A stretch of DNA of 64,000 bases from IMG/VR virus record IMGVR_UViG_3300036884_000676. The stretch is one strand, 5' to 3'. The notes beneath the pieces were generated by a model. The model saw nothing but the letters and a program-made list of their open reading frames with translations. It was not told the DNA's origin and searched no databases. A program made the translations under genes and the position numbers. The first letter of the stretch is position 1, and each line of letters starts with the position of its first letter. Below, piece by piece: positions 10,431 to 59,368 of the stretch. This DNA is from a virus. Its lineage: Duplodnaviria > Heunggongvirae > Uroviricota > Caudoviricetes.

Positions 10431-10766
10431 ATGAAGTATCTTAAATCTTTTCTTCAACTAACAGAAAACATGGAAATCGAACCTCATAAAGTAACTAATT
10501 TATCAGTTGAACAACAAATGTTGTTAAATATTAATAGGTATAATGTAGAAGAAGTCGCTGAACGATATACGAGAAAGCAATTAGCAAAAACTATTGTCTA
10601 CACAACTTGTTATTCTGAATCTTTAATGAAGCAATATAAGGAATTTAAAACAAAAGAAGATATGGTTCTTTATATTATTGAATGGCTTGATGAATGTTTT
10701 GAAGATTTAGGATATGTTGAAGATTTAATTGAAACGATTGATAATTGTAATAACGGTACATATTAA
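10431..10766 (+). CDS. putative internal head protein (CTS-like N-terminus)
   Basis: Begins MKYLKSFLQLTE; late promoter. Confidence 0.6.
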   Translation: MKYLKSFLQLTENMEIEPHKVTNLSVEQQMLLNINRYNVEEVAERYTRKQLAKTIVYTTCYSESLMKQYKEFKTKEDMVLYIIEWLDECFEDLGYVEDLIETIDNCNNGTY

Positions 10767-11050
10767 TTATCTTCTTCCATATAATCTTCTATTTCAGGGA
10801 AACTTATTTCCTGAACATAATCATATACATTTCGAAGCTGTTCCAGAATATCATCTATTACATCTTCTCTGTCAAATATTTCGTTTTCTAAATCATATGG
10901 AACTGATCCACTTATAGCTTCAACATGCCAATTTGAATTTTTATAAATACGAATAACAAATTTATCAACAATATCATCTTCCTCTTCATGAAGTTTATCT
11001 TTTTCTTCATGTTCTTCAATGAAAACATAATAGATCTCGTCTTTATACAT
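10763..11050 (-). CDS. acidic hypothetical protein
   Basis: 95-aa ORF with TAAATATATA motif upstream. Confidence 0.65.
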   Translation of the reverse strand: MYKDEIYYVFIEEHEEKDKLHEEEDDIVDKFVIRIYKNSNWHVEAISGSVPYDLENEIFDREDVIDDILEQLRNVYDYVQEISFPEIEDYMEEDN

Positions 11051-11108
11051 ACACAGTTTCTTTTTTTAAACCATATATATTTAAAAATTCAGTCCAAAAT
11101 TGATAATT

Positions 11109-11366
11109 CTATTTTATTTTTAATACAGGTGGAATATAACTCAATATAACTACTGTTGATATTCCTGTTTCGTTGACTTGCGGTTTAATACTATATTCGT
11201 TGAATTTGTAGTTCATCCAACCATTACACTTCAAATAATTCAAAAGATTTCTAATGTTTAAATTTTCTGGTATATCAGATAGTTGAATTTTCATACGTTT
11301 TCCAAAGGGATCATCATCAATAATGATCGAACCGAAGTCTTTAAACCTCGATGAAGGACTACTCAT
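11109..11366 (-). CDS. hypothetical protein
   Basis: 85-aa ORF; late motif at 11421-11431. Confidence 0.55.
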   Translation of the reverse strand: MSSPSSRFKDFGSIIIDDDPFGKRMKIQLSDIPENLNIRNLLNYLKCNGWMNYKFNEYSIKPQVNETGISTVVILSYIPPVLKIK

Positions 11367-11450
11367 AAATTAATCATTTTTTTAGGATTTACACAAAAAT
11401 GTGTGTATAAGATATTTTCTTTATATATTAAATTTCAAATATTGTTTATT

Positions 11451-13214
11451 TTAATCTGGTGGAGGTGGTGCTTGTCCAGTAGTGAAATTTTTAATCACAC
11501 CATAAGAAAAACCGAATATATTTTGTGCATAAGCTACATAATAATATTTAGTACCAGACAATAATCCACTAATAGTTCCACTAAAATTAAGTGGGGCATT
11601 TCCAGTTCCACAACTCTTAACTGTTCCAGTGTAAACACCAAAAGAAGTAAGAGAATATTTCATTCCTAAATCTATTATAGATCCACCACCATTTGAAATT
11701 AAAGATCCAGTTAAAACAGCTGATGATGAAGTAACACTTGTAGAACCGATAGTTGCAACAGTTGGAGCAGGTGATGAGGAAGTTGTTATAGTTAATATAG
11801 ATCCATAACCTGTACCCAATGAATTAGTGGCAAAGGCTCTAACATAATAGATTGTCAATTGATTTAATCCCATCATAGTATCTGTATAAGATCCTATTCC
11901 TGTACTACCATCATAAACAACCGTATTATTCAATGTCGGGTTGTTCGTTGTAGAATAACAAATTCCACGAACAGTTGCCAATCCACCATCACTTGTCACA
12001 TTACAAGAGACTGTACAAGAATTATATCCCGGAGTTCCAGTTGATACAGTAGTGACACTTGGAATTGAATAAGTTGGGGGTGGAGGTGGAGGTGGTAATG
12101 GTTGTGGAACAACATTCTGTTGTAAATCCGTTGTAAAAGTTCCCTGAAATTCACTGATTAAAAAACCATTTTCAAAAATCCCATTTAACCACATTCCAGA
12201 AAAAAACATTCCAGATTTAAAAATTCCATTCATCCATAATCCGTCATACCAAAGTCCATTTTTCCAAATTGTTAATGAAGTAAAGGCATCTTCTGCACTT
12301 GTATTGAATACCCCACCATACCATTTTCCATAATTGAATAATCCTTTTTCGAAATGACCACCGAACCAAAATCCATTGTTAAATGTTCCGTCTTTCCAAT
12401 GAGTAACATTATGATCAACACTAGCTATAGTATTTCCACTACTATCAATATTAAGTCCAGACATAAATTGTCCATTTTCAAAAACACCATTATACCAAGT
12501 TGTTAGTGTTGTTGTTCCACTTTCAGTTCCAAATCTTGCTAATATATTAGTTTTTATTTGATTGAATGTTCCTGTTTTCCAAATACCTTTAAGAAAATCT
12601 CCACCGAAAAATCCACCACTCCACCATTCATAATTATCAAAATAACCATTATAAAACTTCCCGTTAACCCAATATGAATTTTTAACCGTACCATTATTGA
12701 ATACACCGTTCATCCAGACTGAATTTTTGAATAATCCATTATAGTAATTTCCATTATACCAATATGGACAATCAAGGGCCCCCGTTGTAACCTGTGTAGA
12801 TGTCATTCCAGAAACATTATTATCATTCCCAAAGATACCATTATGCCATTCACCGTTTAACCATTTACCGTTCAAAAACTGAGAATACATTTTATCTTCT
12901 TCAACAATCACAAATCTTTTTGTTAATATCATTGATTTATCCAATAAATAAGAAAACCAACGACCTTTTTTCCAAATTCCATCATGCCAAATTCCAGAAT
13001 ACCATGTACCATCTTCCCATTCTCCACAAATCCATTCTCCCATGTACCATACTAAACCATAATCATCCAAACCTAAAACAGCATTTCGGATGGAGGCATT
13101 TAATATCCAATTATATCTAACCTTTAATATTTCTATGGTTAAATCATCAGTCAATAAGATATTATTAACATTGTTTTCTATATTTACTATTTGAACTTTA
13201 AAAGCCATTCCCAA
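11451..13214 (-). CDS. virion protein with W/F-x-x-G repeats and two C-terminal FN3-like domains
   Basis: Many WxNG/FxNG pentamers; poly-Pro linker; YYVRAFATNSLGTGYGS and YYYVAYAQNIFGFSYG FN3 signatures. Confidence 0.7.
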   Translation of the reverse strand: MGMAFKVQIVNIENNVNNILLTDDLTIEILKVRYNWILNASIRNAVLGLDDYGLVWYMGEWICGEWEDGTWYSGIWHDGIWKKGRWFSYLLDKSMILTKRFVIVEEDKMYSQFLNGKWLNGEWHNGIFGNDNNVSGMTSTQVTTGALDCPYWYNGNYYNGLFKNSVWMNGVFNNGTVKNSYWVNGKFYNGYFDNYEWWSGGFFGGDFLKGIWKTGTFNQIKTNILARFGTESGTTTLTTWYNGVFENGQFMSGLNIDSSGNTIASVDHNVTHWKDGTFNNGFWFGGHFEKGLFNYGKWYGGVFNTSAEDAFTSLTIWKNGLWYDGLWMNGIFKSGMFFSGMWLNGIFENGFLISEFQGTFTTDLQQNVVPQPLPPPPPPPTYSIPSVTTVSTGTPGYNSCTVSCNVTSDGGLATVRGICYSTTNNPTLNNTVVYDGSTGIGSYTDTMMGLNQLTIYYVRAFATNSLGTGYGSILTITTSSSPAPTVATIGSTSVTSSSAVLTGSLISNGGGSIIDLGMKYSLTSFGVYTGTVKSCGTGNAPLNFSGTISGLLSGTKYYYVAYAQNIFGFSYGVIKNFTTGQAPPPPD

Positions 13215-13231
13215 TTTTTATTTTTATAAAG

Positions 13232-15914: not shown

Positions 15915-17021
15915 ATGATATATAATATACAAAATCAAATTGACTTATCAGGATTCTACATTGTCTATAATGGTGTTGTCGTAAATGAAAAAGAGGGAAC
16001 TTATGGAATATCTCATTTAATAGAACATTTAGTATGTAAAAACTGGAATGATGAATTTGTGGATTCATTAGAAAAAAACGGTATAACTTGGAATGCTTAT
16101 ACAACACCGAATAATATAGTTTTCTATATCAAAGGTTTAGATGATTATGTTTATAATTTCAAAAATGAATTTCTTCAAAAAATCACAAACTTCAAAATAA
16201 CTCCTGATGTTTTTAAAATAGAAAAAAATGTGGTTTTAGAGGAATATACCGACTTATTCAATAGGTATAATAAAAATCATTTTCTCAATTTATATAGAAA
16301 AGTACTAAACAACTATAATTCAGTTGGGAAAAAAGAGGACATAGAACAATTAACAATGGAAAAATGCTTAGAACATTATTCGCAGTTTTATAGTAATCCA
16401 TCTAAAATAATATACATATCAAAGAAATATAAAGAAGAAACAACAAATATAACCTTTGATGATAAGTCAAGTAAAAAAACTTTTAAATTAGGAACATATG
16501 ATTATACCTTAGAAACTCCTTTATTATCTGGAAATAAATCTTCTATTATTTACCTTTCTCCAATAATAAATGAAGATTTCGATAAGATAATATTCATCAA
16601 CTATCTTCTATCTGGAGGATTAAAATCTCCGTTATATAAAGCAATTAGAGAAAAAAATAGTTTGGCTTATTATATCAACTGTCGTATTGATCGTCTGGAT
16701 GATAAAGGAATCATAATTATTTCAACCGAAACGAGCGATGTTAATGTGGAAAAATTAAATGAAACTATAATCAATGTTTTTAAAGAAAGATCCTATTTAA
16801 CCAGAGAAAAATTTGAAAGTGTAAAAAATTTCATTAAAATCAGTTTGATAAAATCGAATATTAACTTACAAGACAATGAAGATAAATTCATTCTCCCCCA
16901 GAATTGGCTTATAGAAGATACAATCGACAAGTTAACTTATGAGGATATTATGGTGGCTTTTGATAAATATTTCAACATCAATGACTTCTATAAAAGTGTA
17001 AATAAAAATGAATTTTCTTAA
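15915..17021 (+). CDS. M16 (insulinase-family) zinc peptidase
   Basis: GISHLIEHL inverted HxxEH, NAYT, EKNVVLEE and IREKNSLAY. Confidence 0.9.
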   Translation: MIYNIQNQIDLSGFYIVYNGVVVNEKEGTYGISHLIEHLVCKNWNDEFVDSLEKNGITWNAYTTPNNIVFYIKGLDDYVYNFKNEFLQKITNFKITPDVFKIEKNVVLEEYTDLFNRYNKNHFLNLYRKVLNNYNSVGKKEDIEQLTMEKCLEHYSQFYSNPSKIIYISKKYKEETTNITFDDKSSKKTFKLGTYDYTLETPLLSGNKSSIIYLSPIINEDFDKIIFINYLLSGGLKSPLYKAIREKNSLAYYINCRIDRLDDKGIIIISTETSDVNVEKLNETIINVFKERSYLTREKFESVKNFIKISLIKSNINLQDNEDKFILPQNWLIEDTIDKLTYEDIMVAFDKYFNINDFYKSVNKNEFS

Positions 17022-18011: not shown

Positions 18012-18266
18012 ATGAATCGTTTTATTTTATTATTTGAGGAACTTATCAATACTATTTTTAACAAGAGAAAGAAATATATAGTGGAAATTGTTAAATATCA
18101 GGATGATAATGGTAATGATGTTCCTATTGGATCAATCACTCAGAACGAAAAACTCGTTGATAAATTTGAGACCTACACATATTCCAGAAGATTAGCCTAC
18201 AAGATCGGAAAAACTGTAAATGCCGTCAAATATGACGGAAAGTTCGACATCAGGATATATGAATAA
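18012..18266 (+). CDS. hypothetical protein (weak CTS-like start)
   Basis: MNRFILLFEELIN; GATATATAC motif upstream. Confidence 0.55.
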   Translation: MNRFILLFEELINTIFNKRKKYIVEIVKYQDDNGNDVPIGSITQNEKLVDKFETYTYSRRLAYKIGKTVNAVKYDGKFDIRIYE

Positions 18267-20669: not shown

Positions 20670-22931
20670 TTAAATTAGTTTACTGATACTGTTCAGCATT
20701 TGATTTTTAGTTATTGGTTTGGACAAAAAATCATCAGCACCTAAATCATAAGCCTTTTTTCTAAATTCTGAAACAGCATATGCTGATTGAACAATTACGA
20801 CAATATTTTTATTGTGTGATTTCACATCTTTCAAAACTTTATAACCATCTATATCTCCAAGTCCAAGGTCGAGAAGAACTAAATTAATTTTATTCTTCTT
20901 GATAGTTTCTAAAACTTTATTACCATCACTAACAAAAATTTTGCAATTAGTTGCTTTTAAATAGGATCTCAGTATGTGTATAAAATTTTCATCATCCTCA
21001 ATTATTAAAATATTTATACCTGTTAAATCAATTAATTCGTCCTCTTCGGTATTTTCTGAAACATATATATCATCCTTTATAGCATAGGGAACTTCAAAAT
21101 AAAAAGTACTCCCCTTATCCAATTCAGAATCAAATTTTAAATCACCATAACCCAAAATTTCAATTAATGATTTCGAAATAGGTAAACCCAATCCGGCACC
21201 TTTGTTCTTTGATCCCGGTTGTCCAAATTGTGCAAAACGATTAAATATAATTTTGAGATTGTCTTTTGAAATTCCTATTCCAGTATCTTTAACATATATT
21301 TTCAATTTGTTTTTATCCAAAATTTCATAACCAAATTTAACGAACCCTTTTTTCGTGAATTTTATAGCATTACTTAATAAATTCATTAAAATTTGTTTCA
21401 ATCTATATTTATCAGTACATATACGAATATTACTATTTAAATCAATATCAATATTTAATTTAACTTTACTTGTACCAATGATTTTCGAATATTGTACTTT
21501 CAATTCTTGTAATAATTTATTGAGTTCAACTTCTGTTTTCTGAACTTTCAATGTACCAGAATCTATCTTAGTAATATCTATAATATCATTTATTAAATTG
21601 GTCAATATATCACCATTCTGGATAATAATATCCAAATAATTCATCTTCTCTGCTTTACTCACATTCTCTTTTAAGAGTTCAGAAAATCCTATTATACTAT
21701 TAATAGGAGTTCTCAAATCATGGCTCATATTAGATAAAAAAGCCATTTTTAATTTTTCAGATTCTTCTGCCTTTTCTTTGGATTTTATCAATTCTTCTTC
21801 GAATATTTTTCTATCGGTGATGTCTAATCCAAAAGATATTGTTCCTGATATAATATTATGCTTTCTAACTTCATTATTTTGCCACAATATATACCTTATT
21901 TCACCATGTTTTGTGATAATAGAATTTTCAACAATATCCGTAGAATCATCTTCTGATAAAATAGATTCGAATATTTTATTAACTTTAGGTAATTCATTCT
22001 TTGGTAATATCGGAATATCATTAAACCAATTCTTTCCCATCATTTCTTCTTTTGAATATCCAGTTATTTTTTCTGCTGTTTTATTAAATATATTTACACG
22101 GCCATTTATATCCAATCCAACAATCATAACATTTGCTGTATTCAATAGATTTTCCGTGAATAAATATGAATCTCTTAAAGTATTTTCTAATTCTATGTTT
22201 TCGGTAATATCTGATAATATTGAAATAAAACCTATATCGTTCCAAGGAGAACTTGACACTTCAAAGTGTTTGTTCATTTTTGGATAATAAAATCTAAATT
22301 TCTTCGGTTTTTTGTGTAAAACAACATCAGCATATTGATCTAACACTGGAATTTCACCATAAATTTCACTGGCCAACTTTCCTTTAACTTCTTCTCTCTT
22401 GAAACCAAATATATCCTCATATGTCTGATTGGTATCTATTATAGTATAATCTACTGGTTTTCCTTTTTCATCAAATATCATTTCGTGAATTGCCACTCCC
22501 TCAATCATATTATCCAATAATGATTCAAAATAAAGCTCATATTTTTTTAAATTTTTCCTTTTTATTTGCTGAAGTTTATTTTTAAGTACATTTTCTAAGG
22601 CGGATTTAATTTCCGATTTATCTGATGTTTTTATAATATAAGATGATACCCCGGCCCCAAACATTTTATTTTTCCAAATCACTGAATCTTCACAAGTAAA
22701 GATAGCAATTGGAATATCTGGATATGCATCTTTTAGGATTTCTGTATTTTCAACTGGATCAGTTTCGTTCAACAACAAATCTAATATAATAATATCAAAT
22801 TTTGATGAATCTAAATTTAATGCCCCCTCAAGGGTTAATGATGAAAACACAATTTCAGCAAAATCTTTTGTTAGAGTTTTAATACCAGAGATCGTAACTG
22901 GATGGTCATCTATAACTAATAATCTTATCAT
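20670..22931 (-). CDS. hybrid sensor histidine kinase, REC-PAS-PAS-HisKA-HATPase-REC
   Basis: VIDDH...IILDL...YIIK; two PAS-like segments; FLSNMSHDLRTPINSIIGF; NLLSNAIKFT, DTGIGI, GAGLGL; IIEDD...LLDLG...FLSKP. Confidence 0.95.
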   Translation of the reverse strand: MIRLLVIDDHPVTISGIKTLTKDFAEIVFSSLTLEGALNLDSSKFDIIILDLLLNETDPVENTEILKDAYPDIPIAIFTCEDSVIWKNKMFGAGVSSYIIKTSDKSEIKSALENVLKNKLQQIKRKNLKKYELYFESLLDNMIEGVAIHEMIFDEKGKPVDYTIIDTNQTYEDIFGFKREEVKGKLASEIYGEIPVLDQYADVVLHKKPKKFRFYYPKMNKHFEVSSSPWNDIGFISILSDITENIELENTLRDSYLFTENLLNTANVMIVGLDINGRVNIFNKTAEKITGYSKEEMMGKNWFNDIPILPKNELPKVNKIFESILSEDDSTDIVENSIITKHGEIRYILWQNNEVRKHNIISGTISFGLDITDRKIFEEELIKSKEKAEESEKLKMAFLSNMSHDLRTPINSIIGFSELLKENVSKAEKMNYLDIIIQNGDILTNLINDIIDITKIDSGTLKVQKTEVELNKLLQELKVQYSKIIGTSKVKLNIDIDLNSNIRICTDKYRLKQILMNLLSNAIKFTKKGFVKFGYEILDKNKLKIYVKDTGIGISKDNLKIIFNRFAQFGQPGSKNKGAGLGLPISKSLIEILGYGDLKFDSELDKGSTFYFEVPYAIKDDIYVSENTEEDELIDLTGINILIIEDDENFIHILRSYLKATNCKIFVSDGNKVLETIKKNKINLVLLDLGLGDIDGYKVLKDVKSHNKNIVVIVQSAYAVSEFRKKAYDLGADDFLSKPITKNQMLNSISKLI

Positions 22932-25094: not shown

Positions 25095-25346
25095 TTATTT
25101 TATACGGGTAATTTTATAAGTTCTTTGGATATATTCATCTCCAATCTCAGCAAATTCTCCCCAATCAGTAATAGTTTCATCCCATTTATCATCCAGAACG
25201 GTTTCATCTTTCAATTTTTCTTCTAATTCGGGTAATTCTTCCAAAGAATATTCATCGGTATATCCACGACCAGTTAAATCTTTTAAGAGAAATAATTTTT
25301 CTCCATCAATATCTTCATTTATAAAATCTTTATATCTCTTAATCAT
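25095..25346 (-). CDS. putative internal head protein (CTS)
   Basis: Begins MIKRYKDFINE. Confidence 0.7.
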   Translation of the reverse strand: MIKRYKDFINEDIDGEKLFLLKDLTGRGYTDEYSLEELPELEEKLKDETVLDDKWDETITDWGEFAEIGDEYIQRTYKITRIK

Positions 25347-25362: not shown

Positions 25363-26049
25363 TTACAAATTTACACTGAGATAGCCATGTCCATATCCAA
25401 CCTTTTTATTCCAATTTTCAATAGCTTTTCTGGCCTGTTCTTTAATTTTTGAATTTGTTAATAAATTCCTTCCCTCGTTTGTTATTGATCTGTTTTTTGC
25501 TAATAATCCTTTTTTAATTAATCTATCATAAAATTCATCTTGTAATTTTGGTCGTGCAAATGATTTCAAACTTTTTGAGGCGATTAAGATTATCAATTCT
25601 TCATCAGTTATATCCTCAGATTTCGATGTATCTGGTAGCATCAATTCGGATTTTGGTCCAGTATGAATTATAACTCTTTGTGGATAAGAACCATAAACAA
25701 CAAGTATCATTCCCTCTGGAATTTCAAGAGTTCCACTTTTTTTCTGACCTTCAATATAACCTTGTGGTGAATCAGATTCCCATCCACTTCTTGTGACAAT
25801 ATTTCCAACGGGAACTGCATTATTATTGGTAAGTCTAAAAAATTGATAAGTTTCACGATCAGCATCATGCCACGGCATACCAATTGTTACAGGCTTTCCA
25901 GATTGATCCAATCTATATTGTTGAATGTTCTTACCTGATATTTCTTTAGCCCAGTCACGAATTCCGTCTGGAATATTTTTTACCGATAAAAAAATATCAC
26001 TTGAATAACTTTCCTTAATAAATTCGATAAAAGATTTTAAATTTTTCAT
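25363..26049 (-). CDS. putative internal head protein (CTS)
   Basis: Start moved to 26049: MKNLKSFIEFIKES. Confidence 0.7.
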   Translation of the reverse strand: MKNLKSFIEFIKESYSSDIFLSVKNIPDGIRDWAKEISGKNIQQYRLDQSGKPVTIGMPWHDADRETYQFFRLTNNNAVPVGNIVTRSGWESDSPQGYIEGQKKSGTLEIPEGMILVVYGSYPQRVIIHTGPKSELMLPDTSKSEDITDEELIILIASKSLKSFARPKLQDEFYDRLIKKGLLAKNRSITNEGRNLLTNSKIKEQARKAIENWNKKVGYGHGYLSVNL

Positions 26050-26053: not shown

Positions 26054-27064
26054 TCATTCCTCTTTTTTCTTTTCATTTGCTGGTTTGAATCTCCATTTAA
26101 ACCAATAATAATTGTTTTTCTCGATGTAATAGGTTTTATCTTTTATTTTTAACACAATGAAAGGATCATTATTTTGATCTTCGTTGTGTCCTAAGACTTC
26201 AACTATTTTCCCTTCTTTTAAAAAGAATTGTCTACCCATTTCATCTCGAACAGGATTATTGTCCTTCAAATTTATATAAAGAGCTGATTCTGGTTTAAAC
26301 CATTTAACCAATTTTTTATACAAATAATTGTTCAATTTTAAAAAATACTCTCTATCAATATAAGGATAACGAGATTCATTCAATAATTCAGGACAGGTTA
26401 AGGCTGGTGGTTTATTCAAACCATTAAAATTTTTAAAAGCTCCGAAAAATTCTTCTTCATTAAATTCAAAAGACAGATAAACATCAAGTTTTAAAGATTC
26501 ATTCTGAACCATCCTTAATATCTTCATATTTTTATAATTAACACTATCTTCAAGGAATATATCACTTCTTTTATTGAACCTCGGATCATTGAATAAATCT
26601 TTGGCCATTTTCTGAGACATCTGCATTAATTTATTAGAAGTTCCGGCTGAACGAGCATATTGATCAACATACGGTCTATTATCATCACTATAAATAGATA
26701 AACTTGGATCTTGAGCAAATCCATAACCCGGACCAAATGGTGTTTGAACTTCTCCACCCATTAAGTATTGATTGAACTCAGATGATTCTACTATAATAAA
26801 ATCCATAAAATCTTCAAATTTTGTAATCATTTGTTCATCTATTTTTTCGAATTGAATCTGTTGATCTTTTAATTTTCCAAGTTGTGTAAGATTAACGGTC
26901 TCAATATCACCAATTTTCTCCGCACTTCTCATATAACACAATCTTTTTAAAATAATAGACAATTGTTTCTTCTTAGCTTCTTCTGATTGTGGTGAACCAA
27001 TACCACCACCATCCCATCCATTAGGATATCCTGTAATCTTTATTTTAAATGTTGTCTTACCCAT
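26054..27064 (-). CDS. hypothetical late protein with internal CTS-like start at 26830
   Basis: Start MGKTTF at 27064 after TTTATATATAA; internal MITKFEDFMDFIIVES. Confidence 0.65.
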   Translation of the reverse strand: MGKTTFKIKITGYPNGWDGGGIGSPQSEEAKKKQLSIILKRLCYMRSAEKIGDIETVNLTQLGKLKDQQIQFEKIDEQMITKFEDFMDFIIVESSEFNQYLMGGEVQTPFGPGYGFAQDPSLSIYSDDNRPYVDQYARSAGTSNKLMQMSQKMAKDLFNDPRFNKRSDIFLEDSVNYKNMKILRMVQNESLKLDVYLSFEFNEEEFFGAFKNFNGLNKPPALTCPELLNESRYPYIDREYFLKLNNYLYKKLVKWFKPESALYINLKDNNPVRDEMGRQFFLKEGKIVEVLGHNEDQNNDPFIVLKIKDKTYYIEKNNYYWFKWRFKPANEKKKEE

Positions 27065-27133
27065 AATTTTCTTTATATATAAATTTTGTATTTTCACTTT
27101 TTAATATATACTAAAAATAAAACAAGTCAACAA

Positions 27134-42471: not shown

Positions 42472-42913
42472 TAAATTTATTGATGAAGAATTCTTTCTAA
42501 GTAATTTTTATATTAGTCCAATAATTTATAAAGGAAAAGAATATAAAACCGTTGAACATGCTTTCCAAGCATCAAAAGCTGATAACGAATCGGAACATGA
42601 ATGGATTCGTAATATGGATACTCCCGGAAAAGCAAAAAGAAATGGTTCAGATCCACATAAAGTTCACCTGAGAAAAGATTGGGAAGAAATAAAAGAGGAT
42701 TTGATGTTGGAATTACTTCGAATCAAATTTTCAGATCCAGAATTATCAAAAAAATTAATTGATACAAAAAATTATATACTGGTTGAGGGGAATTATTGGC
42801 ATGATAATTTTTGGGGCAATTGTACCTGTTCAAATTGTAGAAATATTGAGGGTCAAAATAAATTAGGTGAATTACTAATGAAAGTTCGACAAGAAATTAT
42901 TGATTTGTTGTAA
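42455..42913 (+). CDS. NADAR-family hydrolase
   Basis: FLSNFY, TVEHAFQASK, P..AKR.G, W......M..LL..KF, LVEGN.WHD.FWG and G.N.LG.LLM.VR. Confidence 0.92.
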   Translation: MGKLIDKFIDEEFFLSNFYISPIIYKGKEYKTVEHAFQASKADNESEHEWIRNMDTPGKAKRNGSDPHKVHLRKDWEEIKEDLMLELLRIKFSDPELSKKLIDTKNYILVEGNYWHDNFWGNCTCSNCRNIEGQNKLGELLMKVRQEIIDLL

Positions 42914-45901: not shown

Positions 45902-47809
45902 TTATTTTACTTCAGTGAATTCTACATCCTGAACATCCTCTGGTGGTTGTTTTGGTCCTTTTTGAGTTTCACCAGATGTATTCTGTTGTTGAGTTGTTTC
46001 ACCACCCTGACTCTGTTGGTACATTTTCGTAGAAATAGAATTCCACTTTTCATTCAGTTCGTTTGTAAGACTATCAACTGTTGGAATGTCCTTTATGGAA
46101 TGTGCCTGTCTGAGTTTATCAAGAGTTTCCTTTAATGTAGTTCTATCACTTTCAGTTAATTTCTCTCCAAAATCTTTGATGTTTTTTTCACTCTGGAAAA
46201 TTGAGGCATCTGCTTTATTAAGTTTATCAATATCATCCTTTTCTTTCTTGTCCTTTTCTTCATTTTCCTGAGCTTCCCTTTTCATCCTTTCAATTTCATC
46301 CTTGGATAAATTTGAAGAACCTTCAATACGGATATTCTGTTTCTTCTGAGTTGCTTTGTCAACAGCCAAGACTTCGATGATACCGTTCGCGTTGATATCC
46401 AACGAAACACTGATTTGCGGCACGCCTCGTGGTGCTGGTGGTAATCCATCCAATATAAATTTTCCTAAGGATTTATTATCCTTAGCCATTGGACGCTCCC
46501 CTTGAAGAACATGAATCTCTACGGATGGTTGATTATCAGCGGCCGTTGAAAAAACTTCAGTTTTTGATACTGGAATTGTAGTATTAGCTTCAACCAATTT
46601 TGTGAATACCCCACCGAATGTTTCAATTCCAAGTGAAAGAGGGGTAACATCAAGTAATAAAATATCCTTTACTTCACCACCAATAATACCAGCTTGGATG
46701 GCTGCTCCAACGGCAACGGCTTCATCAGGATTAACTGATCGGTTTGGTTCTTTTCCGAAAATACTTTTAACAAGTGTCTGAACGGCTGGAATTCTTGTTG
46801 AACCACCGACCAAAACGATTTCATCCAGTTCTTCTTTTTTCAAACCACTATCCTCAAGGGCTTTTCTTGAAATAGGAATCAATCTCTGGAAAATAGGATC
46901 ACAAATTTGATCGAATTTGGCTCTGTTAAGTTTTACAACCATGTGTTTAGGAACACCATCAATCGGCATTATATAAGGTAGGTTGATTTCTGTTTCAACA
47001 GAAGAAGAAAGTTCAATCTTAGCTTTCTCGGCTGCATCTTTTAATCTTTGGAGTGCCATCGGATCTTTCTTTAAATCCACACCACCATTTTCTTTTCTGA
47101 ATCCCTCATTCAACCAATCTACAATAGCATCATCAATATCATTACCTCCAAGGTGGACATCACCATAAGTTGATTTCACCTCAAAAACACCTTCACCTGA
47201 TTCAAGAACAGACACATCGAATGTACCACCACCAAAGTCGAACACAACAATCTTCATATCCTTGTTCTGTTTGTCCAATCCGTAAGCGAGAGCTGCGGCC
47301 GTTGGTTCATTTACTATCCTTTCAACTTTGAAACCAGCGATTTCACCAGCCTCTTTAGTCGCCTGTCTTTGTTCATTATTAAACCAAGCCGGAACAGTAA
47401 TAACTGCTCTGTCTACGGTTTGACCAAGATAATCCTCGGCTGTTTTCTTCATTTTTTGAAGAATCATTGCACTGATTTCCTGAGGGGTGAAATCTTTACC
47501 ATCAATACTGACAACAGGATTACCATTACTTGCCCTTTTAACAGGAAATGATACCCTTTTGATTTCATCGGTCAATTTTTCGTATTTCTCACCCATGAAT
47601 CTTTTAATGGATGATATTGTTCTTGGACTGTTAGTTACCTGTTGACGGCGAGCTGGTGCTCCTACTTTTCTTTCACTATCAATGAAAGCTACAATACTCG
47701 GTGTGGTTCTTTGTCCTTCACTGTTTGCGATAATAACGGGAACTCCGCCTTCCATTACAGCAACGGCACTAAAAGTAGTTCCTAAGTCGATTCCTACAAT
47801 TTTACTCAT
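45902..47809 (-). CDS. dnaK: Hsp70 chaperone DnaK
   Basis: [39 protein letters not shown] and [11 protein letters not shown]. Confidence 0.98.
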
Positions 47810-51131: not shown

Positions 51132-52598
51132 TTACCACCTACGAAGTTTTCCCCACACTACCATTAACTTAGTTTTGATACTTGGGTTCAATTCACGATT
51201 TAACCACAGTTTAGCACCCTTTAAAGTGGTAAATTCGAGGTTATCCTGAGCTTCATCTGCCTTCTTCAAGATTTCACCGAACTTCAATCCCGGCTTCATC
51301 CCGATTTCAATCAGATGGCGACCCATCAGAATGGACTTCCTCTGTTCAGTTGTAACATGGAGTGTCTTTGCGAGATTCCATACTTCCTCGATTTCAGTCC
51401 TAACTTTAAGAATCCTTTCTTCATCGACATTATCCCTACCCAGAGCATCAGCCTCAATAACAAAGAGTAAATCCTTGATAGTAGACGGATGAATGTTCTT
51501 AGAAAGTCTCAGAAGAGCTTTCTTCCTACTACTCAGTCCGTTGATTGAAAAGATGTTGACATGAGCCAAATGGAACTTAATCAGTTTTACAATCTGTTCG
51601 ACCAACACTGGTTTAATTCCAATCCTGTTAAGGATTTCTTCAGCCATCACAGCACCTAATCCCTCATGACCCTTACTTGTAACACAAATTCTACCACCCT
51701 TTTCTTCATGTTCGGTAGTTTGTGGTTTTGCGATATCATGAAGTAACATGGTAAACATGAACTTGGCTCTTTCATCCTCGACAATTCCCTCTCTTTCACA
51801 AATACTCAACATCCTTTTCATGGTCAGTTGGGTATGCTTTTCAACATCACCCTCTGGGTGCCAAATCGGGTCTTGTTCAGTATCTTTCAGAAGTCCAAGT
51901 TCAGGAATAACGACCATAGAACCACTTTCACGAAGAAAATCAAAAATCAGTTCAGGGTGTTTTCCCTTAATTGCCCATTTCATGAATTCTTCGGATAACC
52001 TTTCTTTCGGAAGATGTTTCAGTTCTTCAGACATTTCCCTCATGACCTCAAAAGTTTCAGGTGCCACAGTAAATCCAAAACGGGATTGAAACTGTAAACC
52101 CCTCAGAACCCTAAGAGAATCTTCCTTAAACTTATCAGAAGTATGACGAATGATACCATTCTGTAAATCTTCCAGACCGTTAAAGAAGTCAAAAAGGATA
52201 TTGTTAATTGGGTCGAAACCCAGAGCGTTCCATGTAAAATCCCTACGGAGAGCGGCTTCTTCTTTGGTCATTGGTTCGAAACTAACTTCGAAATCCTTAT
52301 GACCAACACCAAGACGATTTTCCTTACGAGGTACGGAAAAATCACATTCCAAATTATCTTTTTTGAATTTCAAAATACCGAAACTCTTACCTACGGAATC
52401 AACCTTTCCAAGACGGGAAAGAATCTTATCAAGTTGTTCGACAGTACATCCATGCACTTCAATATCAATATCTTTCGGATCAATTTCCATAAATTTATCA
52501 CGGACACATCCCCCGATCAATACGGGTTCAAATCCATTTTTACGGAGTTCCTGAAGAATCGAAATTAATATGTTATCGGTGAATGTGATGTTCGTCAT
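51132..52598 (-). CDS. cca: CCA-adding tRNA nucleotidyltransferase with HD domain
   Basis: GGCVRD...KDIDIE, RRDFTWNA, F.EDSLRVLR, ERL.EE, HPEGDV..H and LLHDIAK. Confidence 0.9.
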   Translation of the reverse strand: MTNITFTDNILISILQELRKNGFEPVLIGGCVRDKFMEIDPKDIDIEVHGCTVEQLDKILSRLGKVDSVGKSFGILKFKKDNLECDFSVPRKENRLGVGHKDFEVSFEPMTKEEAALRRDFTWNALGFDPINNILFDFFNGLEDLQNGIIRHTSDKFKEDSLRVLRGLQFQSRFGFTVAPETFEVMREMSEELKHLPKERLSEEFMKWAIKGKHPELIFDFLRESGSMVVIPELGLLKDTEQDPIWHPEGDVEKHTQLTMKRMLSICEREGIVEDERAKFMFTMLLHDIAKPQTTEHEEKGGRICVTSKGHEGLGAVMAEEILNRIGIKPVLVEQIVKLIKFHLAHVNIFSINGLSSRKKALLRLSKNIHPSTIKDLLFVIEADALGRDNVDEERILKVRTEIEEVWNLAKTLHVTTEQRKSILMGRHLIEIGMKPGLKFGEILKKADEAQDNLEFTTLKGAKLWLNRELNPSIKTKLMVVWGKLRRW

Positions 52599-52688: not shown

Positions 52689-53636
52689 ATGATTATTACT
52701 GAATTCAACAAATTTAACAAAAGGAATGTGGTGAGCTTCGATTTTGATGGAGTGCTTCATTTAAGTATGATTCCCGGCACGATCCATCCTGCTGATTGGA
52801 TCAATTATAAGACATGGATACCGAGTAAAAAATTACACGGAATTTTAAAAAAAGAACATCAGAATGGTAATAAAATAATCGTAATTAGTGCTCGTGATAA
52901 AAAATTTTATGATTTTAATAAACCAGATTTCAATTGGGACTCCCCACCATTAGACATGAAAAAGATCATGATGAAATTTATGAAATTATATCAATTACCA
53001 GTGGATGATATAATTTTAACTGACAATGGTCCAAAAAAGCAAATTTTAATTGATATGAAGGCCATAAGACATTATGATGATAATATTGATATGGAACGAG
53101 AATTAAAAGATACTAATATTGAATTTGTATATGTTTATAATGATAAAATAGTAAGAAGAATTAAAAATAAAGGTAATAATATTTCTGAGGAAAAAATTAT
53201 TGATAGTGAAACGATTGGGGAAATTCAAAAGCATATTGCTGATGGAACGAAAAATGACAAACCAATATTAACACCTGACGGTAAAAATGTGTATGTGATT
53301 CGAGCTGTTCAAAAAGGAGAATTTGATCATGTTATGAATAAAGGTGGGGTATCTGGAACATTCTGGGGAACTGAAATAAGTTATCGTAGTAATTATTATT
53401 TTATTAAACCAGATTCAGGATATGATAAAAGTTGGTCTTTTAGCCTTGACTTCAATCCAACCATTAGTAATTGGCCAGATGAACCTCGTATTGAAAAACC
53501 AAATCCAAATTATAGACTACCAAACAAATTAATAGATCATTTTCAGGAAGTAGGTAGAAGAAGTGCCGTATCCTTAGAGGATATTTCCTATATCTTAGAT
53601 TCAAAAGGAGAAATTGTATATGATAAAGGAATTTAA
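52689..53636 (+). CDS. HAD-superfamily domain protein with additional C-terminal domain
   Basis: SFDFDGVL (DxD), ISAR, K and HYDDN; start MIITEFNKF; late motif 52656-52666. Confidence 0.7.
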   Translation: MIITEFNKFNKRNVVSFDFDGVLHLSMIPGTIHPADWINYKTWIPSKKLHGILKKEHQNGNKIIVISARDKKFYDFNKPDFNWDSPPLDMKKIMMKFMKLYQLPVDDIILTDNGPKKQILIDMKAIRHYDDNIDMERELKDTNIEFVYVYNDKIVRRIKNKGNNISEEKIIDSETIGEIQKHIADGTKNDKPILTPDGKNVYVIRAVQKGEFDHVMNKGGVSGTFWGTEISYRSNYYFIKPDSGYDKSWSFSLDFNPTISNWPDEPRIEKPNPNYRLPNKLIDHFQEVGRRSAVSLEDISYILDSKGEIVYDKGI

Positions 53637-54219
53637 AATATTTGAAAGTAAACAGATTGGTGTGTTATATCATTTCACTACTTTGAGTAGCCTTTTCGAC
53701 ATGATACTTCGAGCAAGATATGTAACAAGTGAGGAAAACAAAATATTTCTCAAATTCGGATATAAAACAAATATTTCTCTCAGTAGAAATTTTAATATGA
53801 AATCATCAGAATTAAAAATTGAAAAACAATGTGTAAGAATAGTCATCAATGGAGATAAATTATCAAATCATTATAAAATTGAACCTTTTTCAGATCCAAT
53901 ATATGATAAAACTCGTTCAGAAAGAGAAGAAAGAATTATGAGAGGTAGAAGAGATGATGTCGCCGATATTACAAATTATATCATTCAAATTGATGTTTTA
54001 AAAAATCCAGTATTAGCTGATCTTTATCCTTGGAAGCCTATTAATTCATACACTTTTTCAGATCCGAAAAATACTCAATTAAAAATAAGTGTATCCGAAA
54101 CAGATGAAATCATTAGATTATATGAAATGTATTTGAAAGAAACCCTAAGATTTTTCGGTTTTTGTAAATTCAACTTTAAAATTAATGTAGTTGATAAAAT
54201 GAATCCTGTTCGACTATGA
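53620..54219 (+). CDS. CTS-bearing ADP-ribosyltransferase-fold-like protein
   Basis: MIKEFKIFES; LYHFT...ISLSRN...GDKLSNHYKI...EREERI. Confidence 0.55.
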   Translation: MIKEFKIFESKQIGVLYHFTTLSSLFDMILRARYVTSEENKIFLKFGYKTNISLSRNFNMKSSELKIEKQCVRIVINGDKLSNHYKIEPFSDPIYDKTRSEREERIMRGRRDDVADITNYIIQIDVLKNPVLADLYPWKPINSYTFSDPKNTQLKISVSETDEIIRLYEMYLKETLRFFGFCKFNFKINVVDKMNPVRL

Positions 54220-55163
54220 TAACAGATTTTAAAATATTCGAAAGTAAAAATATACAGAATCTTTATCATATATTGGATACTGAAAAATTATACTATGTCT
54301 TAAAGAATAACGAAATCACATCTTATAAATTTCACTATATATCAACCACGAGAAATAAAATGATGAATGGGTATACTGGTGATAACTCAACTTCAATTTT
54401 TAAACTTGAATTGGATGGTCCGAAATTGACAGACAATTATAAAATGAAATCATTTCAAGACAGTGGGTGGGAACTTGGTACAGATAATGAAAGAACTCAT
54501 TTTTATCATCAGGAATGGGAAGAACAAATACAAACCAATAAAATTAAAAACGCAAAAAAGTACATTGTCAAAATAATATTACTGAAAAACAGGATAGATA
54601 GATTGAAAGATAGTTCATGGTTCGAAAATCATTTTAGTGAAAGAGGTAGAAAATCAAAATGGATAAATTTACCTGATATATTGAAAGACATCATCGACAA
54701 ATATAAAATAGAACTCTGGGTTCAGGATGGTTCAGTAATCAAAAAAGACGATGAATATGTAAATAGTATCATCAATTATGATGTCAGAAAAAAATATCAT
54801 GGATTTGCTTTATATTGGAGGGGATATATTACCCAGAAAGATAGATTTGGTTATTTGGAAAAAACTTTACCATTGGATAAAAGAAATCCAAAAATAGAAA
54901 AACTGGTAGTCGGATATACATATGATAATCTCTGGGTGAAATCAAAATTAGATATATCAAAGAATCTTATAAAAAACAGACCAAAAATATTCAAAGCGGA
55001 AGCATCATTAAACATCTTCAATTTCGAATATGATGAAGATGATATTCTCAAAAAAGAGGGTGATTTTATTCTTTTAAAACAAGGTAAATTAAAAGAAATA
55101 GATCCAATTCAGAAATATGATTACGCTTGGGATAGAGAAATGGTACTCGATACAGAATTTTAA
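54216..55163 (+). CDS. paralog of upstream ART-fold-like protein
   Basis: MITDFKIFES; LYH...ISTTRN...LDGPKLTDNYKM...EWEEQI. Confidence 0.55.
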   Translation: MITDFKIFESKNIQNLYHILDTEKLYYVLKNNEITSYKFHYISTTRNKMMNGYTGDNSTSIFKLELDGPKLTDNYKMKSFQDSGWELGTDNERTHFYHQEWEEQIQTNKIKNAKKYIVKIILLKNRIDRLKDSSWFENHFSERGRKSKWINLPDILKDIIDKYKIELWVQDGSVIKKDDEYVNSIINYDVRKKYHGFALYWRGYITQKDRFGYLEKTLPLDKRNPKIEKLVVGYTYDNLWVKSKLDISKNLIKNRPKIFKAEASLNIFNFEYDEDDILKKEGDFILLKQGKLKEIDPIQKYDYAWDREMVLDTEF

Positions 55164-55271: not shown

Positions 55272-55649
55272 ATGAAAAAAAACGGATTTGGACCTCATTT
55301 GATGTTAGATTTAAATGAGTGTAATGTAGATAAGTTGAACGATTACAAATTCATTTTTGAGTTGTTGAACACCATTCCTGATAGAATTGGGATGACAAAA
55401 ATAACACAACCCTATGTGTTTCCATATTCTGGGTTAGTTCCTGAAGATGAAGGAATAACTGGAATAGTAATAATAGCAGAAAGTCATATAAGTATACATA
55501 CATTTCCAAAAAAGAAATATGTTTTCATTGACATTTTTTCATGTAAATACTTTGATCTGGAAAATATAAAGCAAGAACTAATCAAGACATTTGAATCTAA
55601 AAAGTTTCATGTTCATTTCACCGAAAGAGGTAAAGATTTTCCGAGATAA
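55272..55649 (+). CDS. speD: S-adenosylmethionine decarboxylase proenzyme (class 1B)
   Basis: G.HL.LDL, GITGIVIIAESHISIHTFP and DIFSC. Confidence 0.92.
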   Translation: MKKNGFGPHLMLDLNECNVDKLNDYKFIFELLNTIPDRIGMTKITQPYVFPYSGLVPEDEGITGIVIIAESHISIHTFPKKKYVFIDIFSCKYFDLENIKQELIKTFESKKFHVHFTERGKDFPR

Positions 55650-56776: not shown

Positions 56777-57595
56777 TTAATCATTATCAAGATTAGAATT
56801 ACCATGACTATCAACACTTGGTTGTACTCTTTCATCATCTTTTATACCATATCTATTTGGTCTCCCTTCTGATTTTATTGATGAATATTTATCAGGATAT
56901 AAATATTTAACAAAATCTTCATCTTTAAGGGTATCTACTGGTATTTTAGGATATTCATATCCATATGTATCATTTGCGAAATATTTCTTCTCCTTATGAT
57001 TAATATCAATAACACACAAACCTAAGTCGTTATACTTATAATTAAATAGCATTAATTTTTCTTTTTTGCCTCTTATATAGAAAGTTATGGTTATACCATT
57101 TACTCCCTCATTCCTGACGAGCGGAGATACTTCCGATGAACCGACAATATTTTTTAATCTTTGTCCTAATTCCTGAGCATATGTAATAATTTCACTATCT
57201 TTCATTTCTACAAATTTCTCAAATGTTTTTGATTCATATCCTCTATCCACTACATTGATTAATGTATCTGGACTTCCAGCCTTACCAGATGGATCAAATA
57301 TTTCTGGTTCTACATCATATTCAGAACCAAGATATAAAGTCATAAAAATTCTGAATCCCGTTATATGTTCGATTAATTCATCAACAACTTCTTCTGGGGT
57401 ATCTGTTACATTACTCATAAGATATTCTTTCAATTCTTCATTGGTAGAATCCTCGTCATTATTAACAATCTCCATCAACATATCCCAATCAGCTAAATTA
57501 GAATATTTCTTTTTAAATTCAGTAACCCATTGTAAAAATTCCTCTTTTTTTGGAATATCACTTCTTTCATTGATGAAATCTTTAAATCTTTTCAT
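56777..57595 (-). CDS. putative internal head protein (CTS)
   Basis: MKRFKDFINE; second internal motif KTFEKFVE. Confidence 0.7.
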   Translation of the reverse strand: MKRFKDFINERSDIPKKEEFLQWVTEFKKKYSNLADWDMLMEIVNNDEDSTNEELKEYLMSNVTDTPEEVVDELIEHITGFRIFMTLYLGSEYDVEPEIFDPSGKAGSPDTLINVVDRGYESKTFEKFVEMKDSEIITYAQELGQRLKNIVGSSEVSPLVRNEGVNGITITFYIRGKKEKLMLFNYKYNDLGLCVIDINHKEKKYFANDTYGYEYPKIPVDTLKDEDFVKYLYPDKYSSIKSEGRPNRYGIKDDERVQPSVDSHGNSNLDND

Positions 57596-57604
57596 TCTTA
57601 TTAA

Positions 57605-57925
57605 TTATTTTTTTGGTCCATTCAATACAAAATCAGAAAACTTGGTAAAAACTTTTGGCTTATTATTTTTATTACCTTTTTTACTTTTCTTACTTTTTTT
57701 TCTATCTAATTTATCAAAACGATCACCCATATCATAAGCTGCTCTATCCCCACTTCCGACAGTACCAGATCCACCTTGCCAAACTGAACCCGGAAGTGAA
57801 CCGACTTGAGCTGTTGTTATATTACCCATTCCATTGATATTGGCTGTAGCAAAAGCTGTACCACCTCCACCGTCTCCATCTTCATTTAACTTTATGTATT
57901 CACTATATTTTATAATTTTTTCCAT
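57605..57925 (-). CDS. CTS-bearing protein containing a copy of the capsid N-arm
   Basis: KYSEYIKLNE, then 39 aa with 22 identities to capsid aa 49-87. Confidence 0.8.
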   Translation of the reverse strand: MEKIIKYSEYIKLNEDGDGGGGTAFATANINGMGNITTAQVGSLPGSVWQGGSGTVGSGDRAAYDMGDRFDKLDRKKSKKSKKGNKNNKPKVFTKFSDFVLNGPKK

Positions 57926-57928
57926 GTT

Positions 57929-58156
57929 TTACTTTTTAATTTCTTCAACACTGAAATCGTGTAAATAATTTGTTCTTTTAAATTCACTTGCCTCTCCTCT
58001 TGTTTTAAATTGTTTTGCATCTTTCTTAGACTTTGAAGTAATAATATGATCTTTCATCATAATTTCTTGAAAATATGTATTATCTTTATCTTGCAAAACA
58101 AAAACTAATTTATCTTTCTTTTCTGTGAATTCTTCGAATAATTTGATGTATTTCAT
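57929..58156 (-). CDS. putative internal head protein (CTS)
   Basis: Start 58156, MKYIKLFEEFTE. Confidence 0.7.
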   Translation of the reverse strand: MKYIKLFEEFTEKKDKLVFVLQDKDNTYFQEIMMKDHIITSKSKKDAKQFKTRGEASEFKRTNYLHDFSVEEIKK

Positions 58157-58182
58157 AATATTTTGTTTATTTTTAGATGTCA

Positions 58183-58713
58183 TTATCTCCATGTTGTTTG
58201 ATTTTCCCAATATTTTTTATTTAATTTGGTTATTGATTTTTTTTCTTCACCAGATTTACCAAAATTTATTACTTTCACTTTATCACCTTCTCTTGCTAAA
58301 ACACGATATTTATGTTTACCTTTTCCCTCATATTTCTTCGGATGATTAAACCCCGGAAAAGTTTCATTCCTATATTTTAAACCATGAGCCAAACGCTCAA
58401 CATCTACACTCTCTCCCTCTGTTAATAGAGATTCTTCCATTTCTTCACCACCTTCCATATATTCATGTCCATCTAATTCGAAACCATGTTTTTTTGCGTA
58501 TATATCCGCGTGATAATAAACATGATCAATCCCACTACCGTTTCCTATTAATTCTTCTACGCTGTCATATTCTGGTAGTTGACCATTTTCTTTACACCAT
58601 AAATCATAATGATATAACCAATGTTCCAAGATGTTATCAGGTATTAGACCATAATCTACCTCGTAGTAATCACTCTCATTAATAAATTCTTCATATTTCT
58701 TAATTCTTTTCAT
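58183..58713 (-). CDS. putative internal head protein (CTS)
   Basis: MKRIKKYEEFINES; late motif 58735-58745 heads the operon 58713 to 56777. Confidence 0.7.
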   Translation of the reverse strand: MKRIKKYEEFINESDYYEVDYGLIPDNILEHWLYHYDLWCKENGQLPEYDSVEELIGNGSGIDHVYYHADIYAKKHGFELDGHEYMEGGEEMEESLLTEGESVDVERLAHGLKYRNETFPGFNHPKKYEGKGKHKYRVLAREGDKVKVINFGKSGEEKKSITKLNKKYWENQTTWR

Positions 58714-58792
58714 GGTATGTGAAATAATTTTCTGTTATATATTAATTTCTAACAGTGATTTTTTATATATACCTAAAAATAACTGACACTAA

Positions 58793-59368
58793 ATGAAAAA
58801 AGGATATGTTAAACTTTTCGAGGAATTTATTGATGCCGACTATGATATGCAGAGAATTATAAAAGAATTGGAAAAAAGAGCCAATCATTGGTTCGAAAAA
58901 GGTGAACTATCAAAAGATGCCCAATTGGTTGATATTAAACAAACAGAAACGGCAATCTCCACAAGAAAAAGTTTAGTGGTCGAATTCAATGATAATGAAT
59001 TTTATTATCAAGTGATTATAAGGGTAAATATAGAACACATGGATAAATGTGAATTAATAATTAAAAAATACAATCCAAATGCAAAAGATGGTGATACTTT
59101 AAAATTAGAAGATCAATTAACATTAACTGGTGAAGATAGTATTGATGTGAATGATATAAAAGGAAAATTCATACTTGATAAGATATCGGAATTAAATGGA
59201 AAAAGTAAAAATCCAGATGAAAATGATATAGATATTCCAAAAGAACCAGAACCACCAGAACAACCAGCTCCAGAAACACCACCTGAAGGTGAAACACCAC
59301 CTCAATCACAAGCACCACCACAAACTCAGGGGGGTCCACCTGCACAAGAGGCCCCACCATCATTATAA
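58793..59368 (+). CDS. CTS-bearing protein with Pro/Gln-rich tail
   Basis: MKKGYVKLFEEFID; late motif 58762-58772. Confidence 0.65.
   Translation: MKKGYVKLFEEFIDADYDMQRIIKELEKRANHWFEKGELSKDAQLVDIKQTETAISTRKSLVVEFNDNEFYYQVIIRVNIEHMDKCELIIKKYNPNAKDGDTLKLEDQLTLTGEDSIDVNDIKGKFILDKISELNGKSKNPDENDIDIPKEPEPPEQPAPETPPEGETPPQSQAPPQTQGGPPAQEAPPSL

Follow-up and report, generated by a model that had tools for sequence, protein, structure and literature searches.

A T4-like N-terminal leader, probably a capsid targeting sequence, on many diverse proteins of an uncultivated giant phage

In bacteriophage T4, mutagenesis of the capsid targeting sequence (CTS) of internal protein IPIII has assigned targeting mainly to residues 4 and 7 and processing to residues 8 and 10, Asp at residue 10 stopping processing but not targeting, and the cleavage motif of the prohead protease gp21 is L/I-x-E (PMC9026906). 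Giant phages of the phiKZ group use long, dissimilar propeptides and an S/A-x-E cleavage motif (PMC5694885), and 19 processed head proteins are known in 201phi2-1 (PMC9026906). Here we describe short, T4-like N-terminal leaders shared by diverse proteins of an uncultivated tailed phage (IMG/VR record IMGVR_UViG_3300036884_000676), of which a stretch of 64,000 nucleotides, referred to as the window, was analysed together with the rest of its contig. The window comprises bases 41,511–105,510 of one 110,119-bp contig (29.5% G+C); coordinates with the prefix g are those of the contig and all others are those of the window. From the sequence, we consider it likely that the shared N-terminus is a T4-type CTS that doubles as a propeptide.

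The contig ends without overlap and is therefore a fragment. Its nearest relatives in the phage collection are the uncultured phages LR756501–4 and LR745206 (634–735 kb; 40–54% identity in the protease-scaffold protein), and more distant relatives include Lak phages, the GAP32 group and T4-like cyanophages. We assign the phage to a 630–735-kb megaphage clade, the host probably being a Bacteroidota bacterium. Leader scans of relatives covered 41–87-kb samples of their genomes.

Reading of the open reading frames (ORFs) recovered all 17 leader N-termini that a preliminary description of the window had listed, with minor corrections, although four or five of them are imperfect matches. Nine further candidates were identified, one weak in the window and eight elsewhere on the contig, and the resulting 26 divide into 14 canonical leaders, 8 with one deviation (tier 2) and 4 that are doubtful. 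Canonical leaders follow M-x(1-5)-[FY]-x-x-[FY]-[ILV]-x-E and end at residue 10–13; tier 2 leaders depart from this once while keeping [ILVMF]-x-E at residues 9–18. The predicted cut lies at residues 9–18 (mode, 11), and the leader Met is either the first ATG or is backed by a promoter motif or by operon packing. Leader bearers thus number 22–26 on the 110-kb fragment, or 12–14% of its ORFs, and among 25 aligned leaders the best-kept columns are P7 (F/Y in 17), P4 (F in 14), P3 (I/L/V in 20) and P1 (Glu in all 25).

The motif is strongly confined to N-termini. The first 30 residues of 179 ORFs (5,370 positions) contain 9 matches to F..F[ILV].E and the 29,228 internal positions 3, a rate about 16-fold higher at the N-termini, and one of the three internal matches is a true N-terminus with its own promoter motif (g32210–33529); for F[ILV][NTDK]E the counts are 16 and 9. 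A position weight matrix gave 13 matches of at least 19 bits, every one of them 1–5 residues past a Met, and the top internal match scored 13. Scanning of the contig and of sampled relatives, a check of the kind that the preliminary description had proposed, found leaders in LR756501, LR756502 and LR756504 as well. When the leader matrix was applied to control sequences at a threshold of 12 bits or more, it found none in 100 kb of the Bacteroides phage crAss001, none in a 41-kb sample of LR756500 (24.7% G+C), two in 100 kb of T4, namely ipII and ipIII, and 17 in this contig; because crAss001 and the more AT-rich LR756500 sample score zero, composition does not explain the motif.

Behind the leaders, the proteins have little in common: in an all-against-all BLASTP comparison with the first 18 residues removed, the bodies were unrelated except for one weak pair (53620–54219 and 54216–55163). 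Codons for Phe, Ile, Leu and Glu differ between leaders, so the conservation is selected at the level of protein and does not reflect a shared DNA cassette. A recombination cassette common at the DNA level was accordingly rejected as a source of the leaders, since synonymous sites differ, and signal peptides were rejected on reading of the sequence, the leaders being charged and amphipathic rather than hydrophobic. Each leader probably forms a short amphipathic helix of 9–18 residues.

The resemblance to T4 extends to individual residues. Across all ATG-initiated ORF starts in 100 kb of T4, a matrix from the 14 canonical leaders ranks ipIII and ipII first at 14.5 bits, with the next match at 10.7 bits, and the conserved leader positions P7, P4 (aromatic), P3 (I/L/V) and P1 (Glu) correspond to T4 CTS residues 4, 7, 8 and 10. 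One leader, MKTFKEFVNE, has the same first seven residues as T4 IPI. The third-best match in T4 (10.7 bits; MLLEFKQFLYE) begins at an internal ATG in the C-terminal region of uvsW (114210–114440 of the T4 record) and is probably due to chance.

As in T4, the tag is N-terminal and of 10–19 residues, with aromatic residues at 4 and 7, I/L at 8 and Glu at 10, and it stands on unrelated mature proteins in a phage that has gp20, gp21 and gp23; an ADP-ribosyltransferase, packaged in T4, is one of the proteins that bear it, and varied CTS-bearing proteins are already known from T-even relatives. The set is larger, as the preliminary description had anticipated, with 22–26 bearers on 110 kb compared with 3–5 in T4. 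It further differs in that P2 is usually Asn, in that the scaffold is fused to the protease and built from tandem CTS-like units, and in its setting, an uncultured megaphage clade with a probable Bacteroidota host. There is also a likeness to phiKZ, 201phi2-1 and SPN3US (gp175/gp245 proteases), in which a gp21-related protease cleaves many head proteins after Glu, propeptides presumably direct proteins to the prohead and large masses of protein are ejected. However, propeptides in those phages mostly exceed 100 residues and share no common short leader, whereas the tag here is short, stereotyped and T4-like, and its bearers can therefore be listed from sequence. A set of about 20 processed head proteins has precedent among giant phages, and the difference lies in the short T4-type tag. 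A full-text search of the published literature on CTSs in metagenomic, huge-phage or megaphage settings found no description of such a tag set.

The head machinery that a T4-type CTS implies is encoded at one end of the window. It includes a portal protein of the T4 gp20 type (5103–6917, −; PF07230 at 1.5e-64) and a 609-residue major capsid protein of the gp23 type (254–2083, −; PF07068 at 1.4e-27). The capsid N-terminus resembles that of T4 gp23 (...KW.P.LE) and has a predicted propeptide of residues 1–46 (nt 1946–2083) that ends in EYAEMHQLHINE and is followed by Asn. This junction, ...[LI]-(x)-N/H/Y-E then N, is shared by ten orthologues, the most divergent at 32% identity, and the segment alignable with the conserved N-arm region of T4 gp23 follows about 43 residues later.

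Between these genes lies a fused protein (2188–4644, −) with a prohead protease in residues 1 to about 200 and a scaffold from about residue 200 to 818. It matches PHROG 207 (head maturation protease) at 1.2e-25 and T4 gp21 at 5e-9 in BLASTP, with GEFDHP aligned to GELNHP and VSSR to VSSR. The catalytic His85 and Ser140 of T4 gp21 align with His76 and Ser131. By tblastn, the protease-scaffold protein matches 622 phage records, among them those of Lak phages and T4-like cyanophages. The protease begins with a segment ending in EKINE at residue 19, a possible end of an N-terminal propeptide of its own, reminiscent of LIE-9 in T4 gp21.

Within the scaffold, eleven tandem 14-residue units (residues 325–478; 3211–3672, −) each close with a CTS-like heptad, [YF]-x-x-[YMR]-[IVLE]-[ASV]-E, of which YSEYIAE and YQKYIAE are examples; the units typically end Y-x-x-Y-[IV]-A-E, and a regular expression for the repeat gave ten matches at an exact 14-residue period across residues 331–457. 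At the DNA level, TRF did not detect the repeat, and a recent origin by duplication was rejected on that basis; being invisible in the DNA, the array is old and maintained as protein. Protease-scaffold proteins of the clade carry 10–15 tandem 14-residue units of the form I-x-Y-S-E-Y-[IL]-A-E-N-L-D-K. The array is present in LR756501, LR756502 and LR756504 (10–13 copies; consensus near NIAYSEYIAENLDK) and decayed in LR756500, and among 140 full-length representatives of homologous clusters, 87 have at least five copies and 61 have at least three successive 14-residue spacings. The arrangement fits a scaffold that is diced by its protease in the manner of T4 gp22. T4 gp22 is cut at several L/I-x-E sites, and physical coupling of a protease to a scaffold that is later degraded is also seen in herpesvirus UL26/UL26.5, lambda C/Nu3 and T4 gp21 with gp22; to our knowledge, no regular array of 10–15 14-residue units bearing a cargo-tag motif has been described for protease-scaffold fusion systems.

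We propose that the tagged proteins would be made late in infection together with the head proteins, and that the tag would draw them into the scaffold core of the assembling prohead. The scaffold-fused protease of the gp21 family would then cut after Glu in the leaders, at the eleven scaffold repeats and at the capsid propeptide, so that the mature proteins would lie free in the head and leave it with the DNA when the next cell is infected. That the tagged proteins are targeted, cut after Glu, carried in the virion and injected is predicted from the leaders and their genomic context. That one T4-like sorting tag is carried by many diverse proteins, the central suggestion of the preliminary description, is supported by the matrix, the functionally mapped T4 positions, the head genes, the scaffold repeats and the capsid junction.

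The cargo tag also resembles one scaffold unit. This leads us to a more tentative idea, which we regard as possible and well short of probable: that the tag is itself one repeat unit of the scaffold, in a single copy, such that cargo would join the assembling array through its one-unit leader and one protease specificity would serve to cut up the scaffold, release the cargo and trim the capsid. A structure prediction for scaffold residues 320–480 with the first 40 residues of one leader protein (W13, described below) returned a score of 0.00 with low predicted local distance difference test (pLDDT) values and weighs neither for nor against this idea.

Gene organization is consistent with expression alongside the head genes. 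A promoter-like motif with a consensus of approximately TTTAATATATAA (for example, 2110–2118, −) is found 24–36 nt upstream of 12 leader genes and, in the head region, of the genes for capsid and protease and other large genes; from its position before head genes and its likeness to the TATAAATA of T4, we infer that it is of late type. When operons are counted, 22 of 26 leader genes stand behind this motif compared with 80 of 153 other genes (Fisher p = 0.002), in agreement with the enrichment that the preliminary description had expected. It had also held that early and host-like genes lack the signal, and the counts agree with this: none of the 66 genes in three long co-directional replication-type blocks has a leader, compared with 26 of 113 genes elsewhere (p = 3e-6), the blocks having been defined after the data were seen, which tempers this p-value. 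These blocks hold DNA polymerase B, a DNA methylase, a dUTPase, PARG and NADAR. No leader was found on the host-like genes that were checked, which encode L31, DnaK, PanD, S-adenosylmethionine decarboxylase, the CCA/poly(A) polymerase-type enzyme, the NUDIX protein and a 5'-3' exonuclease. The last leader gene lies at the contig end.

Leaders are retained in relatives even where the protein bodies have diverged. In the 735-kb genome of LR756501, a syntenic cluster upstream of a large membrane protein contains orthologues of two leader proteins of the window (W4 and W5) and positional counterparts of two more (W6 and W7); all four carry leaders, even the two whose bodies tblastn can no longer detect. 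Further leaders occur in sampled regions of LR756501, LR756502 and LR756504, and closer IMG/VR relatives have leaders beside their head genes. The gene that follows the protease in GAP32, a cultured jumbo phage, begins MSKLDKFLNE, and homologous phage records annotate it as a scaffolding protein; tags of the LNE type are thus widespread in phages with T4-type heads.

The candidate leader proteins of the window are designated W1–W18, and the predicted cut directly follows the sequence given unless otherwise stated. W1 (10431–10766, +; 111 residues, acidic) has the tier 2 leader MKYLKSFLQLTE, with a late-type motif 30 nt upstream. W18 (18012–18266, +), which was not among the original 17, begins MNRFILLFEELINT and is doubtful at 9.7 bits. 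An operon that is likewise headed by a late-type motif (approximately 27073–27082) encodes W2 (25095–25346, −; MIKRYKDFINE, canonical, 22.5 bits; 83 residues, very acidic, without a match in Pfam or PHROG), W3 (25363–26049, −; MKNLKSFIEFIKE, canonical, 20.2 bits; 228 residues) and W4 (26054–26830, −; MITKFEDFMDFIIVE, tier 2). The leader Met of W4 at 26830 is internal, the ORF being open to 27097 with an upstream ATG at 27064 behind the motif; the LR756501 orthologue (54% identity) begins exactly at the leader, MITKFNNYLKE.

On the opposite strand, W5 (27134–29023, +; 629 residues) has the tier 2 leader MIQLNNLTPFEEFKKMYE and a late-type motif 31 nt upstream; an Atlas search returned nothing for it, and its LR756501 orthologue retains ...TPFEEFKKILE before the predicted cut. 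W6 (29036–29518, +; MILDYDNFLNE, 18.5 bits) has a basic, low-complexity body rich in Pro, Ala and Lys (isoelectric point (pI) 9.8). Its leader Met is at 29036, and the previously given position, 29027, marks where the ORF opens; a similar protein occupies this place in LR756501 and begins MLKFTQFIDDKLTE. The ATG of W7 (29515–29898, +; MITKFQDFLNE, canonical, 20.8 bits; 127 residues) overlaps the W6 stop codon, and its positional counterpart in LR756501 begins MITKFDQFNE. Two further canonical leaders are found in W8 (30207–30944, −; MKYLLLFENFINE, 22.4 bits; 245 residues) and W9 (31005–31427, +; MKNLKTFIEFINE, 23.4 bits; 140 residues), the start of the latter being an internal ATG of an ORF that opens at GTG 30969, with a late-type motif 28 nt upstream of 31005.

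Three adjoining genes follow farther along. W10 (52689–53636, +), with a late-type motif 31 nt upstream, begins MIITEFNKFNKR and is doubtful, having no [ILV]-x-E and thus no Glu site; it contains a DFDGVL motif of the HAD-phosphatase type and has a weak match to PHROG 505 (polynucleotide kinase; 0.005). W11 (53620–54219, +; MIKEFKIFE, tier 2 with I-x-E; 199 residues) is a weak paralogue of W12 (54216–55163, +; MITDFKIFE, tier 2; 315 residues).

The remaining genes cluster near 58 kb, where an operon that runs from W16 to W13 has a late-type motif 30 nt upstream of its first gene. W16 (58183–58713, −; MKRIKKYEEFINE, canonical, 22.7 bits; 176 residues) is followed by W15 (57929–58156, −; MKYIKLFEEFTE, tier 2; 75 residues, basic), W14 (57605–57925, −; MEKIIKYSEYIKLNE) and W13 (56777–57595, −; 272 residues), an ORFan whose canonical leader MKRFKDFINE (23.8 bits) has 10 residues, as in T4 IPIII; a homologue search of 5.8 billion proteins returned only W13 itself. 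W14 (106 residues, pI 10) has, past its predicted cut, a copy of the N-arm of the mature capsid protein and then a Lys-rich tail. It aligns with capsid residues 31–87 at 43% identity over 61 residues (BLASTP, E = 3e-15), the alignment spanning both predicted cleavage junctions, and could mimic the N-arm and so tether DNA or cargo to the inner shell. The C-terminal end of W14 has a second leader-like stretch, KVFTKFSDFVL. On the other strand, W17 (58793–59368, +; 191 residues) begins MKKGYVKLFEEFIDA and has Asp at P1, with an L-F-E site further upstream; because Asp at position 10 of T4 IPIII blocks processing and not targeting, W17 may be targeted yet uncut at that site.

Most cargo proteins of the window have no significant match in Pfam or PHROGs; those that could be assigned across the contig include enzymes. 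The tagged protein at g31707–32204 contains an ART-PolyVal domain (PF18760; 57.7 bits against a cut-off of 31.2, 2.8e-15), and that at g12728–13228 a weaker second copy (28.2 bits, below the cut-off of 31.2). A SprT-like metalloprotease (4e-8) and a J-domain protein (g13612–13962; 8e-20) are also tagged, and in each of the ART-PolyVal, SprT-like and J-domain proteins the domain begins past the leader. W11 and W12 yield language-model leads towards the ADP-ribosyltransferase (ART) superfamily: the nearest named Atlas clusters of W12 are all of this superfamily, with scores of 0.81–0.89 that are below the reliable range, and W12 probably has an ADP-ribosyltransferase fold, an assignment to be read as a lead only. 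T4 Alt is a packaged ADP-ribosyltransferase and is a direct precedent for such cargo. The polyvalent proteins that enter with phage or conjugative DNA use the same ART family (PF18760), presumably to modify host targets early, at DNA entry; unlike those, in which the domain is a module of one giant protein, the ART domains here are small stand-alone proteins with a CTS-like leader. Two leaderless proteins are encoded on the same contig as the tagged ADP-ribosyltransferases, a PARG of microbial type (g28006–28890; PF10021 at 1.5e-26) and a NADAR domain protein (42455–42913; 1.9e-25). A full-length DnaK is encoded at 45902–47809 (−; PF00012 at 1e-239).

Further tagged proteins are highly acidic, highly basic or low in complexity, resembling T4 core proteins and internal proteins, and on sequence grounds we expect the cargo to comprise both injected effectors and proteins that are associated with the core or with DNA. 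Several observations weigh against the proposal that the leaders mark cargo for processing and delivery. The match of the protease to the Pfam S77 family (PF03420) is weak (3e-5; 23.9 bits, below the cut-off of 27). P2 is mostly Asn in the leaders and Ala in the scaffold repeats, so the two motif classes are not identical, although the L/I-x-E rule allows both. Four or five candidates lack a clean cleavage site, the promoter-like motif also precedes leaderless genes such as that of a sensor kinase, and part of the tagged set could belong to the core, to be degraded and expelled rather than delivered.

The last of these points underlies the alternative that survives best. It accepts the tag as a removable propeptide and head-incorporation signal but holds that most bearers are core or structural components of the prohead, akin to T4 gp67, gp68, gp22 and gp24, which would shape or fill the prohead and be degraded or retained rather than injected. 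Some tagged proteins may be components of this kind, like gp67, gp68 or gp24: W2, W6, W9, W14 and W15 are small and very acidic or basic, of low complexity or coiled-coil-like, as are T4 core proteins and internal proteins; W14 copies the capsid N-arm; and the GAP32 scaffold itself begins with such a leader. As an account of most bearers we nevertheless find it unlikely, given the tagged enzymes of host-takeover type (ART-PolyVal, the SprT-like protease, the J domain and a probable HAD phosphatase); a very large head would be roomy enough for both classes, and the alternative departs from delivery solely in the fate of the cargo.

A leader that has nothing to do with capsid loading appears improbable in turn. 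It might act only as an inhibitory propeptide, or tag proteins for another process such as chaperone hand-off to a DnaK/J-domain pair, localization in the infected cell or turnover; the phage does encode DnaK and a leader-bearing J-domain protein, and an amphipathic N-terminal helix could suit many purposes. Such functions would, however, leave unexplained the match to the T4 CTS at functionally mapped positions, the repetition of the heptad in the scaffold and the homology to the capsid propeptide junction. That AT-rich codon usage or constraints on translation initiation produce the similarity, without function in the protein, is suggested by the AT-rich codons of K, I, F, N, E and Y in a genome of 29.5% G+C but is effectively refuted by the zero counts in the crAss001 and LR756500 controls, by the 153 other ORFs without the motif, by the free variation of synonymous codons within leaders and by the retention of spacing and residue identity in orthologues.

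If the leaders are CTSs, the presence of a T4-type tag in a very distant lineage of uncultivated giant phages suggests an old mechanism that is widespread in phages with T4-type heads. The proteins that a phage carries into the cell, its first weapons against host defences, could then be listed from sequence, here amounting to 12–14% of genes, and the link between tag and regular scaffold repeat offers a concrete, testable idea of targeting. Should the tag indeed be a unit of the scaffold, the head-packaged proteome of uncultivated giant phages would become readable, with dozens of packaged proteins in each genome, several ADP-ribosyltransferases, a J-domain co-chaperone and a protease among them, and there would be a structural account of how the T4 CTS acts, which is mechanistically not yet understood.

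Several neighbouring genes are of interest in their own right. Directly after the cluster of leader genes, a 1026-residue leaderless protein (31473–34553, +) may be a tape-measure or ejection-conduit protein; a search for related loci returned one distant locus only, and the LR756501 counterpart (L005 20001–25076), at 1691 residues, contains an internal 58-residue tandem repeat along with many hydrophobic segments. A complete hybrid sensor histidine kinase (REC, PAS, HisKA, HATPase, REC) is encoded at 20670–22931 (−) behind a late-type promoter-like motif, and LR756501 has a 737-residue counterpart in the same position (L005 8254–10467). A protein with a TnsA-like endonuclease N-terminal domain (7810–8328, −) lies within the head gene cluster, and an M16 (insulinase-type) peptidase (15915–17021, +) stands near the head genes behind a late-type motif. 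Host-like genes encode ribosomal protein L31 (50006–50284, −; PF01197 at 1e-24), a CCA-adding/poly(A) polymerase-type enzyme with an HD domain (51132–52598, −) and the metabolic enzymes S-adenosylmethionine decarboxylase (55272–55649, +), aspartate 1-decarboxylase (PanD; 62475–63014, +) and a NUDIX hydrolase (61961–62425, +).

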